From an uncultured Methanosarcinales archaeon (GTDB taxonomy: Archaea; Nanobdellota; Nanobdellia; Woesearchaeales; JAGVZT01): a DNA stretch of 64,000 bases. The stretch lies in the NCBI GenBank assembly GCA_964419615.1, contig CAYQPU010000003.1, positions 8,054-72,053 of the forward strand. Direction: 5' to 3'. Positions 7,469-39,964 of this stretch are shown here, one piece after another; positions within the stretch are counted from its first letter, which is position 1, and each line of letters begins with the position of its first letter. The translations under genes were made by a program, and so were the position numbers. The notes beneath the pieces were generated by a model, which worked only from the letters and a program-made list of their open reading frames with translations, was not told where the DNA came from and searched no databases.

Positions 7469-9455
7469 CAAATAAATCACCAGATCGTTTGAGTTTTTCA
7501 ATAACCTCTTCTACTTCACTATCTTCAACACCTTTTTCTGCAGCTTGTCTTAAAATATCTTCAATTGGAATTGTTTTAATTCCTTTGTTTTCAATTTCAG
7601 ATATGATCTCTCTTATTAATACAATTTTGCTTCTTTGGGTTGCAGCAACCCCAGTTGCAATTCTATCAATATCTATCTTACCTGTTTCTTTATCAACTCC
7701 CACTTGAGTTAAACAGTAATGAAGTAAAGATATAGCTCTTTTAGCATCTGCTTTGGTTACTTTTCCAGCCAATCTAACTCTTGCACTAGCTTCAGATAAT
7801 CTAACTAAAGCTTCAAGTTGTCTTGGACTAATAGGGATGGATTTGATTAAATCTTCTTCAGAAGAGCCTTTATTTCTTAAATCAACATAATATGTCTTAA
7901 TCTCTTTTATGGCTGCATTTGTCAAAACAGGTTTAACTCCTTGTTTTGCATATGCAATATATTTTTTTATTAAATCAGTTTCAATTTCAGGTTCAACTGT
8001 TTCTAAATTTTTGTGGATTTCTAAAATAAATGATGCCATCTTGTCATCTTTTTTTTCATCAGGCATATCTTTTATTGGAAATATTAAGTCAAATCTGTTA
8101 ATAAGAGTTGGAGGTAATTCAATTTGCTTTGCTAACATCTCATAAGGATCAAATCTACCAAATTTAGGGTTAGCTGCTGCTAGTACTGTGGTTTTTGCAA
8201 GTAATGTAGCTTGAATATTGGCTTTAGATACAGTCACAGTTTGTTGCTCTAAAGCTTCATGCATTGCGCTCCTATCTTCAGAACTCATTTTATCTAATTC
8301 ATCAATACAACAGATTCCTTTGTTTGCTAGAACAAGAGCACCTGCCTCTAGAGCATACCCTTTCATAAATTCATCTTTAACAACACTTGCTGTTAAACCA
8401 ACACCAGTTGCACCTTTACCAGAAACATACATACCTTTTGGAGCTATTACTTGTATTCTTTTTAAAAGCTGAGATTTACCAGCTCCTGGATCTCCAATAA
8501 GTAACACATGAATGTCTCCTCTTGTTACAACCCCATCATTTCTCTTTTTTTGAACTCCAGCAAAAAGCTGTAAAATTAATGCTTCTTTTACTCTATCATG
8601 ACCATAAATTGAAGGTGCTATTGACTGAAGGAATTTATCATATATTTTTGGATCTTGAGAAAGTTCTTGTATCTTTTTTTCTTCTTTCTTTGAAATTTTG
8701 ATTTCAGTAAAATCTTCTTCCAAGGCTTTTACATGGTTTGAATCTATTACCAGATCATATCTTGTTGAGGTACCACCTGTTCTTAGAACAATTGGAACTT
8801 CTCGAATTATTCCTGTAACTAGAATTTTTGATCCAGGATTGGTTTTCTTTTCAGAGATAGGACTTACAAGATCTTGCTTAAGAAATATGCTTATTCTTTT
8901 TGGTTGCTCACTGCCTTCCAGATTTTCAGGTGCTTCTTCTAGTACTATTCTTTGGGCATCAACTAATTCTTTACTAATAACTCTGAATTTGCCTTTTCTT
9001 CCACAACCACATCTTGATGGTTCCTTAAACTTGGTATCTACCTGCAAAATGTTGATAATATTCCCACAAGAAGGACATTCAAATTGACTAGAAATCACTT
9101 GGGGCCGGACATCTGATTTTTGTCTTACTAATCCGTCAACTAAGACAAATATTCCTAAATGCTTTGCTCTCACGTCCCTAATTCTTACTCTCTGAGATTC
9201 AGGGATATTTGAAAATCTGACTTTGAATCTTTCTGTTTCTTTAATATCAAAATTTTCTACAGATAACTCAGCTGCTTTAATTACTTCTTCTGGTTGTTCT
9301 AAAAGTTCTTCAGCTAAGCTAGGATCAAACTTTAAAAGTTCTTTAAAATCAACAATTAAAAAACTCTTGTCAGACTGAACATTTTGGAGAATTTGGGTTT
9401 TATAATTAATGTCAAGAAACTCATCAAATCTCTTAATCTGTTCTGCAGCCTCCAT
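7437..9455 (-). CDS. mcm: replicative helicase MCM
   Basis: C4 Zn finger, GDPGAGKSQ Walker A, IDELDKM, RFDL arginine finger, ISPRQLE; no intein. Confidence 0.97.
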   Translation of the reverse strand: MEAAEQIKRFDEFLDINYKTQILQNVQSDKSFLIVDFKELLKFDPSLAEELLEQPEEVIKAAELSVENFDIKETERFKVRFSNIPESQRVRIRDVRAKHLGIFVLVDGLVRQKSDVRPQVISSQFECPSCGNIINILQVDTKFKEPSRCGCGRKGKFRVISKELVDAQRIVLEEAPENLEGSEQPKRISIFLKQDLVSPISEKKTNPGSKILVTGIIREVPIVLRTGGTSTRYDLVIDSNHVKALEEDFTEIKISKKEEKKIQELSQDPKIYDKFLQSIAPSIYGHDRVKEALILQLFAGVQKKRNDGVVTRGDIHVLLIGDPGAGKSQLLKRIQVIAPKGMYVSGKGATGVGLTASVVKDEFMKGYALEAGALVLANKGICCIDELDKMSSEDRSAMHEALEQQTVTVSKANIQATLLAKTTVLAAANPKFGRFDPYEMLAKQIELPPTLINRFDLIFPIKDMPDEKKDDKMASFILEIHKNLETVEPEIETDLIKKYIAYAKQGVKPVLTNAAIKEIKTYYVDLRNKGSSEEDLIKSIPISPRQLEALVRLSEASARVRLAGKVTKADAKRAISLLHYCLTQVGVDKETGKIDIDRIATGVAATQRSKIVLIREIISEIENKGIKTIPIEDILRQAAEKGVEDSEVEEVIEKLKRSGDLFEPRRGYIQKI

Positions 9456-24001: not shown

Positions 24002-24661
24002 CTAAGGTCTCATCCACCTAATCTCATAATAAGTGACATCTCCTTCATCATCAACAACACCTATTAAAAGACGCTTTTTTGTTGAGTGAGCAACTCTGTT
24101 TTTTGCAGCAAATTCATACCAAGTAAGAACATTTCCTTCATGAACTGGATAAATAATCCACCTAGCATGATCCTCTCCTGGTTTAATTCCACGGTCATAA
24201 ACTCTAAAATCTGCTCCAAATTTCAATGCAGTTTTTACAACATAACCTCTGTTCCTCATGTTCTTATAAACACAGTACCTAATCCAGAAATTTGGCTCAA
24301 CTTTTCTTGCCCTTAGAATATAAGTTCTTGATGTTAGCTTTTTTTTCCTATAATCTGTAATGACTAATTTGCCTTTTTCCATTAAAAAAAGGCCTTCACA
24401 TAAAGAAAGTTGGACTTTTCCACCTTCAATTATCTTTCCAAAACAACTTTGATTAAAAAATTCTCTTGCAGCATCACTATCTTCGGTTAGTACACGTTCT
24501 CTTGCAAAGATAGCTTTAACTATTTCTTTTTTCTTTTTAACTTGTTCAGCAGCAGATTTTTCTACATTTTTATCTGTTTTTTTAGTTGTAGCTTTTTTGG
24601 TTTTTTTAGCTACTTTCTTCTTTGTTATTTTCTTTTCAACTGCTTTCTTTTTACGTGGCAT
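24002..24661 (-). CDS. endA: tRNA-splicing endonuclease, single catalytic unit with Lys-rich N-terminal tail
   Basis: VYKNMRNRGYVVKTALKFGADFRVY, H in EDHA, RVAHSTKK, YYEIRW. Confidence 0.93.
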   Translation of the reverse strand: MPRKKKAVEKKITKKKVAKKTKKATTKKTDKNVEKSAAEQVKKKKEIVKAIFARERVLTEDSDAAREFFNQSCFGKIIEGGKVQLSLCEGLFLMEKGKLVITDYRKKKLTSRTYILRARKVEPNFWIRYCVYKNMRNRGYVVKTALKFGADFRVYDRGIKPGEDHARWIIYPVHEGNVLTWYEFAAKNRVAHSTKKRLLIGVVDDEGDVTYYEIRWMRP

Positions 24662-24723: not shown

Positions 24724-24871
24724 ATTAGCTCCCATAGGCCGGTTCATGAGCCAGTTTGTTAGCTTGTTTAGAATAGTAATCTTAGATTATTATCATGATT
24801 ACAAACTGTTCCTTATTGTTTCTTACGATTTTCACAGTCTCATTCACTTAATTGGCCTTTATGGAGCTAAT
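24724..24871. ncRNA. unassigned structured element, copy A (paralog of 52720-52866)
   Basis: terminal stem ATTAGCTCCCATAGGCC/GGCCTTTATGGAGCTAAT; core blocks shared with copy B with compensatory changes; G-U pairs favour + strand. Confidence 0.7.
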
Positions 24872-33801: not shown

Positions 33802-34036
33802 TGCGGGGGACGGGACTTTCAAGGACCTTTTAATAGCTTGAGTCATGGTCATCTTGTTTTTTGATACACCATGTTATGGGACTTTAAGTCCCATTGTTTT
33901 GGTCAAGCTTTTACCCTTGGGTAAAAGGTTGATTTGAACCCGCGTAGCCACTAAGGCCTACGGCCCTCGACCGTAGTCGTTTTATCTCAAACCAAGATTT
34001 TTTTGGTTTGAATTGACCAGGCTCCGACACCCCCGC
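33802..34036 (-). tRNA. tRNA-Leu(GAG) with introns at 21/22 (34012-33981, 32 nt) and 59/60 (33932-33816, 117 nt)
   Basis: spliced product GCGGGGG-TG-TCG-GAGCCTGGTCAAA-CGA-C-TACGG-TCGAGGG-CCGTA-variable arm-GCGGG-TTCAAAT-CCCGT-CCCCCGC-A; BHB-like motifs at both junctions; conserved position between rpoD and rpl18e. Confidence 0.9.
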
Positions 34037-39453: not shown

Positions 39454-39874
39454 GGTAGAGTGGCTATAAGCCACCTTTTGTAAAACCTCCTATTGAAAGG
39501 AATGGTTTTCCTCAACATTCAACTAAGCGCGTATGCTTGCACTGGCCAGGGCTCACCGTTTCACCAATTCCCTAAAGAACGTCTGCAGAGTCCAGATCTG
39601 TCACCAAATTTGTTTACTGCTTCATTCTCCTTTAAGGCTGTATCGTTTCTGAGTGGTTGCCTTCCATTACAGAACTCCCGTATGGGAGTGGCCTTAATAG
39701 TGGGTGGACTTTCCTCACAAACTTTTAAGAAAAGTTTGATCAAAACAAATGCGACACAAGGTCGCATATCGCGGCTATCTTGCTTAAGAGCAAGCCGCGT
39801 CAAGGGGCTGTAAGCCCTTTATGTTTTGTTCGACCTTTTCTTAAAAGGTCGCGGAAGTTGAGCACCACTCTACC
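39454..39874 (-). ncRNA. rnpB: RNase P RNA with expanded P3
   Basis: P1 GGTAGAGTGG/CCACTCTACC; P4 GAGGAAAGTCCACC and ACAAAAGGTGGCTTA; AGAAAC, TGAAACGG, TGCAAG conserved elements. Confidence 0.92.
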
Positions 39875-39964
39875 AATATATAGGGAGATATTTGGTTTTT
39901 AAAAAGGTTTTGGTAATATTTCGTTCTAAAAAGGTTTTTATACCTATAAAACTTAGCCAAAATA

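Follow-up and report, generated by a model that had tools for sequence, protein, structure and literature searches.

An interrupted tRNA-Leu(GAG) gene in a Woesearchaeota-type archaeon and the structured, probably mobile element within its T-loop intron

The 64,000-nucleotide stretch of archaeal DNA examined here (the window, taken from a 1.48 Mb genome assembled in 64 contigs and 99.4% complete) contains a 235-nt gene for tRNA-Leu(GAG) on the minus strand at 34036..33802, interrupted by two introns at non-canonical positions. The first exon (34013..34036, minus strand; pre-tRNA positions 1-24) supplies the 5′ strand of the acceptor stem, positions 8-9, the 5′ strand of the D-stem and the D-loop as far as A21. 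Intron 1 (33981..34012, minus strand) places 32 nt in the D-loop between positions 21 and 22. Exon 2 (33933..33980, minus strand; pre-tRNA 57-104) comprises the 3′ strand of the D-stem, the anticodon arm, the variable arm, the 5′ strand of the T-stem and T-loop positions 54-59, and is separated by the 117-nt intron 2 (33816..33932, minus strand) from exon 3 (33802..33815, minus strand), which provides U60, the 3′ strands of the T-stem and acceptor stem, and the discriminator A73. The CCA end is not encoded in the gene. The body of intron 2, at the T-loop 59/60 site, is one copy of a modular RNA element that recurs elsewhere in the genome and that probably spreads as a passenger resembling miniature inverted-repeat transposable elements (MITEs) or REPINs.

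Removal of the two intervening stretches (pre-tRNA 25-56, window 34012..33981; and pre-tRNA 105-221, window 33932..33816) yields an 86-nt product that ARAGORN calls as tRNA-Leu(gag), a class II tRNA whose acceptor stem has 7 bp, whose variable arm is long and whose discriminator is A73. ARAGORN makes no call for the gene as it stands or with only one of the two introns removed, and it reports zero tRNAs in the raw window. Likewise, Rfam detects in the window only RNase P RNA and the signal recognition particle RNA, and at the tRNA-Leu(GAG) locus even permissive settings (E up to 10) give no meaningful match and no tRNA. Such silence on the raw locus is expected because the introns are non-canonical. 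The predicted exon junctions join GGUCAA to ACGAC (GGUCAA to ACGACUAC) and GGUUCAAA to UCCCGUC (GGGUUCAAA to UCCCGUCC), and circularisation of intron 2 is predicted to create a back-splice junction at which CUUGAAAG is followed by UCAACCUUUU.

Both splice motifs are relaxed versions of the bulge-helix-bulge (BHB) structure. The central helix of intron 1, GGUC/GAUA, forms 3/4 pairs because one position is G.A, and it stands between bulges AA^U and AA^A (^, splice site). Beyond it lies a 9-bp helix, TCAAACCAA/TTGGTTTGA; an exon-side outer helix is missing, and the flanking A's leave the junction ambiguous by up to 2 nt. At intron 2, the T-stem is followed by an AG^U bulge, a UUCA/UGAA helix with 4/4 pairs, and AA^U in an enlarged 5′ loop; the 5′ splice site thus lies inside a 5x3 internal loop with no clean 3-nt bulge. 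The strict hBHBh′ arrangement of two 3-nt bulges, a 4-bp helix and two outer helices is therefore absent from both introns, which instead show the relaxed HBh′ (intron 1) and hBH (intron 2) types, having at least one canonical bulge beside a 4-bp helix and splice sites 2 nt into the bulges. An initial reading of the DNA, made from the sequence alone (hereafter the sequence-only reading), had listed these helices and bulges, and all are present in the sequence; what needed correction was the pairing of GGTC/GATA, which is 3/4, and the setting of the 5′ site of intron 2, which is a 5x3 loop. When the cloverleaf and both splice motifs are enforced, the precursor folds at -88.7 kcal/mol, compared with -91.0 kcal/mol for the unconstrained minimum free energy (MFE) structure. 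This difference of 2.3 kcal/mol indicates that a splicing-competent fold is accessible.

Comparison with relatives places the junctions exactly. In what follows, the genome of the window is G000, its congener is G001, and other relatives are numbered from G002 onward, with their loci given as L numbers; statements on G006 rest on a genome flagged unpublished. The tRNA gene is situated 24 nt downstream of an rpoD-like open reading frame and 9 nt upstream of rpl18e, in a cluster that runs rpoD-tRNA-rpl18e-rpl13-rps9, and its place between the rpoD-like gene and rpl18e is kept throughout the order. At this syntenic site, at least nine genomes of other families possess an uninterrupted orthologue (L004, L009, L010, L011, L012, L014, L023, L026 and L027), and the intron-less genes run from GGUCAAA into YGAC and from GGUUCRAA into UCCCG, exactly at both predicted junctions. 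Exon 1 is identical to that of G001 at 24/24 positions and 92-96% identical in other relatives, while exon 2 is 90-98% identical to its orthologues. All exons are thus 90-100% identical across relatives while the introns vary, as one would expect if the introns are genuine and the gene is under selection. The proposal of the sequence-only reading, that this is a tRNA-Leu(GAG) with non-canonical introns at D-loop 21/22 and T-loop 59/60, is borne out by the canonical spliced product and by the intron-less and differently interrupted orthologues.

The intron content of the locus is far less stable than its exons. Every member of the family that we examined has a T-loop 59/60 intron in tRNA-Leu(GAG), with lengths of 13 nt in G004 and G002, 24 nt in G006, 30 and 41 nt in G007, 35 nt in G003, about 70 nt in G001 and 117 nt here; the sequences in these relatives are mutually unrelated, the short intron of G004 being of the AAAAGCUUGAAAG kind. 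A D-loop intron at the site of intron 1 is 13 nt long in G006, 12 nt in G003 and 23 nt in G002, and is absent from G004, G007 and all other families examined. In G001 it is 31 nt long and homologous to intron 1, from which it differs in the 9-bp helix by two compensatory double changes. Intron 1 is present in a single copy in the genome. It is best viewed as a small, lineage-specific D-loop intron whose 9-bp helix is maintained by compensatory change, and the 59/60 site as one that is occupied throughout the family while its contents turn over, being filled here by a copy of the element.

Two features of the locus invite the question of whether it is a gene at all. The anticodon loop, UCGAGGG, has C at position 33 (window 33969, minus strand), a position that is near-universally U in tRNAs, and the splice motifs are relaxed. 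Together with a precursor MFE fold that differs from the cloverleaf, these could point to a pseudogene in decay, one that never undergoes splicing and whose exons are relics, with CUY codons read by another tRNA. The sequence-only reading had pointed to a second intact tRNA-Leu(GAG) gene as the sign of such decay. A search of the genome found none: a pattern search recovered this GAG anticodon arm and no other tRNA-like one, and exons 1-2 have no paralogue in the genome. The remaining leucine tRNAs located are tRNA-Leu(UAG) at C5:37407-37541, with D-loop and 37/38 introns, no T-loop intron and an encoded CCA; tRNA-Leu(UAA) on contig C7; and tRNA-Leu(CAA) on C5 near 1.5 kb. C33 recurs in the orthologues of G002 and G008, the latter intron-less, while G001 and most relatives have U33; C33 therefore seems to be tolerated in tRNA-Leu(GAG). 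Given also the conservation of the exons beside freely varying introns, the order-wide synteny, and at least 27 other tRNA genes of this genome with the same T-loop architecture, nearly all of which would have to be dead if this one were, we consider a pseudogene highly improbable.

Intron 2 folds on its own at -34.8 kcal/mol (z = -5.4), and 0/200 shuffled sequences fold as well. Its body consists of a first hairpin (hp1), a GACCAAAAC linker, two further hairpins (hp2 and hp3) and the closing stems AGCUUGA/UCAAGCU and ACCUUUU/AAAAGGU. The sequence-only reading had described the AGCTTGA/TCAAGCT stem, the hairpins ATGGGACT/AGTCCCAT and CATGGT/ACCATG, and the pairings CTTTTACC/GGTAAAAG and ACCTTTT/AAAAGGT, all of which we find; the last two are mutually exclusive. 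Paralogues of intron 2 occur throughout the genome and define a modular, non-coding element of about 100 nt. We built a covariance model of the element core, R1, from alignment A2 and used it to count copies. In intron 2 the core spans 33837..33912 on the minus strand (86.4 bits) and includes the 3′ strand of hp1, the linker, hp2 (33876-33894) and hp3 (33844-33873). Across copies, hp1 takes the form CUUUU-loop-AAAAG, with a variable loop that at times contains nested mini-inserts, and is followed by a conserved tail, YGAYCAAAAC. Next come hp2 (for example GGGAC/GUCCC) and hp3 (for example CGUGGC/GCCACG, with a loop ending in ACAAGAUR), and the 3′ part of the element holds an optional fourth hairpin and then segments that form pairs with the tail and with the 5′ ACCUUUU.

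Covariation among the copies indicates that this structure is under selection. Compensatory change affects 12/14 pairs of hp2 and hp3, compared with 1-4/14 when the partner strands are slid out of register and a shuffle mean of 5.9. The cells of these two hairpins are paired in 93% of cases, compared with 23-45% for slid partners, and the observed covariation score is reached by 0/500 shuffles. Hairpin hp1 also covaries (GACC/GGUC, AAAC/GUUU, GAAC/GUUC), and its 5′ strand covaries both with the hp1 partner and with an alternative 3′-terminal partner. The T-loop copies share the intron ends as well, with 5′ UCRACC and 3′ GGUNNUGAAAG. No boxes of the C/D or H/ACA type are found in the consensus of 19 copies, which lacks the C box RUGAUGA, the D box CUGA and an ACA box with a pseudouridylation pocket, and no Rfam match is obtained at E up to 10; the sequence-only reading was thus right that intron 2 has no clear C/D boxes. 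Readings of hp3 as a K-turn or as an H/ACA structure, attempted by eye, do not fit. Also rejected was the idea that intron 2 is a copy of a 147-nt MITE at window 24724-24871, to which blastn detects no meaningful similarity.

The model identifies 20 loci in G000. Fourteen are T-loop introns, three are D-loop introns, two lie in the anticodon region (one being the 37/38 intron of tRNA-Thr) and one is within RNase P RNA; the 19 intron copies thus sit in different tRNAs and at T-loop, D-loop and anticodon-region sites. Among relatives there are nine loci in G001 and one or two each in G002, G006 and G007, which represent three other genera of the family; those in G006 and G007 are intergenic. A search of relatives for the intron, which the sequence-only reading had suggested, accordingly succeeds within the family, in G001, G002, G006 and G007, and returns nothing from 53 other families. 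Even the two congeners differ in their cargo. The T-loop intron of tRNA-Asp(GUC) carries the element in G001 and an unrelated 43-nt intron in G000, whereas that of tRNA-Leu(GAG) carries the element in G000 and another repeat family in G001. This second family of T-loop introns (containing UUAUUGGCU, then AGCCAAUAAA, and ending in UGAAAG) occupies at least three tRNA genes of G001 (L002, L052 and L069), including tRNA-Leu(GAG). One D-loop intron contains a full element in G000 and only a 21-nt, hp1-like hairpin in G001. Intron 2 is therefore a member of a structured, multi-copy family whose distribution is polymorphic and lineage-restricted.

The module formed by hp1 and its tail is more widely spread on its own than the core is, and is also found between rpl23 and rpl2. 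At G000:C1:~7690-7830, the 16S rRNA gene carries an intron about 140 nt long that interrupts the conserved sequence GGAUUAGAU ahead of ACCC and begins with this module (CGACCUUUUGUAAACAAAAGCUCGACCAAAAAC). An intergenic region at G000:C40:9250-9560 holds two tandem units of about 118 nt that start with a hairpin and tail and end in AUCAAACACCCCAUNGCAUG. Finally, at L022 (G053), a 62-nt hairpin-plus-tail element (CAACCUUUUAACAAAAGGUUGAUCAAAAAAC...) is inserted at the start of rpl18e between the two copies of a 27-nt direct duplication, which takes in the start codon.

The one R1 locus of G000 that is not an intron enlarges helix P3 of the RNase P RNA (gene at approximately 39454-39874), where the copy covers about 140 nt at 39716..39851 on the minus strand (R1, 79.3 bits). 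Its inverted-repeat arms are about 25-31 nt long (CUUUUAAGAAAAGGUCGAACAAAAC ... GUUUUGAUCAAACUUUUCUUAAAAG); the 3′ arm is shortened in the intron copies. P3 is a short, plain hairpin in the RNase P RNAs of G001, G002, G003, G004 and G007, which marks the RNase P copy as a recent insertion, and this insert causes Rfam to misplace P1-P3 and to report the gene as 39458-39770. The P3 of G006 contains an independent insert, which R1 recognizes in inverted orientation (30.5 bits). We also considered that the tRNA introns might derive from RNase P P3, since the UGAAAG that precedes UCC at the intron 3′ end resembles CR-I, GGAAAGUCC. We rejected this origin because P3 is short in the congener and four other relatives, and the UGAA at the intron 3′ end is explained by its pairing with T-loop UUCA. 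A promoter-like box, ACCAAAACCUUUUUAAAA (window ~39875-39900), lies upstream of the RNase P RNA gene and of some tRNA genes and resembles the tail followed by hp1, that is, GACCAAAAC plus (A)ACUUUUAAGAAAA; the resemblance might be accidental, given the A/T-rich sequence, or might hint at the origin of the element.

Taken together, the data favor, with a probability of roughly 0.7, a functional, single-copy tRNA-Leu(GAG) of a Woesearchaeota-type DPANN archaeon, with two introns of which the T-loop intron hosts a MITE/REPIN-like element. The element comprises a hairpin-plus-tail unit (CUUUU..AAAAG, YGAYCAAAAC), a closing stem that resembles an inverted repeat and, inside it, two or three hairpins. 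It probably behaves as a small mobile passenger that persists where it does no harm, in spliced introns and in RNase P RNA within a peripheral helix. The terminal inverted repeats and numerous non-coding copies expected of MITEs and REPINs are present, as are nested mini-elements in the hp1 loop of some copies.

Several observations weigh against this interpretation. Two hallmarks of MITEs and REPINs were looked for in vain: no target-site duplication is seen at the T-loop or P3 sites, and no linked transposase with matching ends was found. The genome has one Y1 (IS200/IS605/RAYT-type) transposase gene, on C57, whose flanking hairpins are unlike the element. The genome also encodes no reverse transcriptase, which counts against a simple transposon. 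Paralogues of intron 2 are approximately 72-84% identical to it, and the closest, at only about 80-84%, give no hint of very recent movement. Relative to the host RNA, the 20 G000 copies all have the sense orientation, and the unpaired motifs GAYCAAAAC and ACAAGAUR are highly conserved across copies, both of which fit an RNA-level function as well. To these must be added C33 and, as discussed below, the apparent mismatch between the relaxed motifs and the type of EndA.

Some of the same data would be accommodated if the conserved module were a functional RNA domain. It might form a stable excised RNA, probably circular, that binds a protein or guides modification, or act in cis, timing or licensing T-loop splicing through its alternative pairings. 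The compensatory changes in 12/14 pairs of hp2 and hp3 and in hp1, the 5′ strand that covaries with both of its alternative partners, the invariant single-stranded motifs, the very stable fold (z = -5.4) and the 20/20 sense copies, the RNase P copy included, are all consistent with this possibility. Nonetheless, C/D and H/ACA boxes and Rfam matches are lacking, the module is limited to one genus plus one or two copies in three other genera, and orthologous tRNAs of congeners differ in carrying it, while many T-loop introns of 25-43 nt in the same genome do without. Copies are also found in intergenic DNA and inverted in the RNase P gene of G006, and mobile DNA typically has inverted-repeat ends and nested insertions such as those seen here. 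We therefore regard a functional domain as unlikely. A dedicated function of the excised RNA is possible, without specific support, and the proposal of the sequence-only reading that the long intron may be a functional circular RNA is not supported, the intron being one copy of a multi-copy element that is confined to a genus and few relatives, is polymorphic between congeners and has copies outside introns. Circularization is to be expected once any intron spliced by EndA and RtcB has been excised and is silent on function.

A different route of spread is suggested by the intron ends. If the family moved as whole introns, by recombination between near-identical T-arm flanks or by reverse splicing, with the RNase P and intergenic copies as side products, then the ends UCRACC and GGUNNUGAAAG would be shared in addition to the module, as they are among T-loop copies. 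Between congeners, moreover, whole introns look replaced rather than filled or emptied, all tRNAs offer the same GGUUCRAAU/CC flanks, and target-site duplications are missing. This explanation is weakened by the presence of the element at D-loop, 37/38 and RNase P P3 sites with different flanks, by the lack of a reverse transcriptase gene in a 99.4%-complete genome, by the inverted copy in the G006 RNase P gene, and by the related hairpin-type element of G053 with its 27-nt direct duplication. We treat whole-intron spread as a tentative alternative, less probable than mobility of the element itself but better placed than a functional RNA domain.

The enzyme expected to cut both introns is an EndA of 219 amino acids encoded at 24002..24661 on the minus strand of the window. 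The protein has a Lys-rich N-terminal extension of about 50 amino acids followed by one alpha unit with domains PF02778 and PF01974, and is the single PF01974 match in the genome. Its closest relatives of solved structure are 3IEY_A (the Nanoarchaeum equitans alpha subunit) and 1A79 (Methanocaldococcus jannaschii alpha4). It lacks the 6-residue insertion of the N. equitans alpha subunit, from which it differs further in having the Lys-rich extension instead, and homologs match from about residue 1-50 onward, indicating that the extension is variable. One gene for the ligase RtcB is encoded. A one-unit, alpha-type EndA is usually described as needing strict hBHBh′ motifs, yet the sole EndA of this genome is of that type and both tRNA-Leu(GAG) motifs are relaxed. 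One speculative way out is that the module is an RNA device that makes T-loop introns workable for such an enzyme, with ACCUUUU switching between hp1 and the closing helix so that the relaxed motif is presented only after the precursor has folded or bound protein. We consider this a long shot. If it were true, the same module in RNase P RNA and in the 16S rRNA intron would tie tRNA splicing to other RNA-processing steps.

In the model we favor, the single alpha-type EndA probably cuts the pre-tRNA at the two relaxed BHB motifs and RtcB rejoins the exons, giving the 86-nt class II tRNA to which CCA would be added later. The hairpins of the element are probably retained because they make the insert compact and self-folding, so that the ends of the intron can come together in the splice motif, because propagation needs them, or for both reasons, and the excised intron would probably be released as a circle with no dedicated cellular function.

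This tRNA gene is not exceptional within its genome. In G000, ARAGORN run with intron search detects only about 10 tRNAs, as does the Rfam tRNA model. We searched with a pattern consisting of the T-stem, UUCRA, an insert, RAARG and the complementary T-stem strand, which recovered at least 28 tRNA genes with a 59/60 intron: 14 long (111-191 nt), five medium (82-92 nt) and nine short (25-43 nt). All 28 show the T-stem, an AG^Y bulge, a 4-bp helix (4/4 pairs in 25/28) and an AA^N bulge, a uniformity of 3′ boundary and bulge that is partly built into a pattern demanding RAARG and T-stem pairing. A second outer helix in strict register is present in only 4/28. The central helix covaries with the T-loop, the pair at position 57 being A57:U in 18 introns, G57:C in 4 and G57:U in 3. 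At G000:C5:56835-57093, only 2 nt separate a pair of tRNA-Trp(CCA)-like genes, of which the first is uninterrupted and the second has a 111-nt T-loop intron that carries the element. A motif-free census using the 44 tRNAs of G049 as BLAST queries confirmed the three-exon chain of tRNA-Leu(GAG) and revealed tRNA-Leu(UAG) on C5; it was only partly informative because G049 is too divergent. An automated solver that excised BHB candidates and tested the products with ARAGORN produced many wrong splices, including a wrong intron 1 here, and was not used to assign identities.

A shortage of detectable tRNAs extends well beyond G000. Near-complete genomes among 60 relatives of the order range from 0 to 43 detectable tRNAs, indicating that disruption of tRNA genes is patchy but widespread in the order. 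Genomes of other families that are at least 95% complete and give fewer than 15 tRNA-model hits include G008 (8), G018 (7), G020 (9), G023 (12), G024 (9) and G050 (8), while other genomes of the order give 30-43 hits and G041, which is 81% complete, gives none. Kaneta et al. 2018 noted that complete tRNA sets could not be predicted in some DPANN genomes and left the matter unresolved, and reported that DPANN alpha4-type EndAs accompany more disrupted tRNA genes (PMC5829648). Our genome resembles theirs in its approximately 10 detectable tRNAs and its one alpha-type EndA; what is undescribed in that study is the T-loop intron family with its shared structured module. Searching the literature in full text turned up no account of a tRNA intron family in Woesearchaeota. 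Another EndA architecture, epsilon2, is found in ARMAN (PMC3239211).

The nearest parallel for the introns themselves is found in the Thermoproteales, where tRNA genes with multiple introns and transposed non-canonical BHB introns have been described (Sugahara 2008; Fujishima 2010, via PMC4033280). The two systems share several introns per tRNA, non-canonical positions, similar introns across tRNA species and positions, relatives that differ in which tRNAs bear introns, and an EndA acting at relaxed BHB motifs. The hallmarks of a mobile tRNA intron family, namely similar introns across tRNA species and positions and a presence that differs between relatives, are thus found here. Our case differs in that the host is a DPANN (Woesearchaeota-type) archaeon and not a crenarchaeon, that at least 28 tRNA genes have an intron at one and the same site, T-loop 59/60, that what the introns share is a long, structured module whose hairpins covary and whose ends resemble inverted repeats, that this module also occurs outside introns (in RNase P P3 and intergenic DNA), and that EndA is one-unit alpha rather than (alpha-beta)2.

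REPINs are doublets of repetitive extragenic palindromic (REP) sequences mobilized by RAYT proteins, which are Y1 HUH transposases. Like MITEs, REPINs and the palindromic elements derived from IS200/IS605, the element is small and non-coding, has about 20 copies in the genome, and consists of inverted hairpin-plus-tail units that form a long stem; the absence of an obvious target-site duplication, the nested insertions, the differences between sister genomes and the presence of a Y1 transposase gene also agree. Unlike them, nearly all of its copies lie within stable-RNA genes in sense orientation, its internal hairpins are kept by compensatory change, and we found nothing in its sequence that connects it with the ends of the Y1 transposase gene. 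A third comparison is with introns that bear guide RNAs, such as the tRNA-Trp intron of Haloferax and its relatives, which houses a box C/D small RNA. Intron 2 is distinguished from guide-RNA-bearing introns by the lack of C/D and H/ACA boxes and by being multi-copy, polymorphic and genus-restricted rather than fixed in one tRNA. It has in common with them, with circular introns of archaea and with metazoan tricRNAs, which are circular RNAs made from tRNA introns (PMC4536317), a long and structured tRNA intron with predicted EndA release and RtcB ligation, probably to a circle.

For the organism, these findings indicate that T-loop (59/60) introns, often together with others, hide most tRNA genes, which explains why only about 10 tRNAs are detected in a DPANN genome that is 99% complete, and the same shortfall is seen in many genomes of the order. 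A single alpha-type EndA apparently processes dozens of relaxed motifs, which challenges the usual link between EndA architecture and substrate range. The tRNA-Leu(GAG) locus, for its part, offers a concrete and datable case of archaeal tRNA introns gaining and exchanging their content through a structured, MITE/REPIN-like element.

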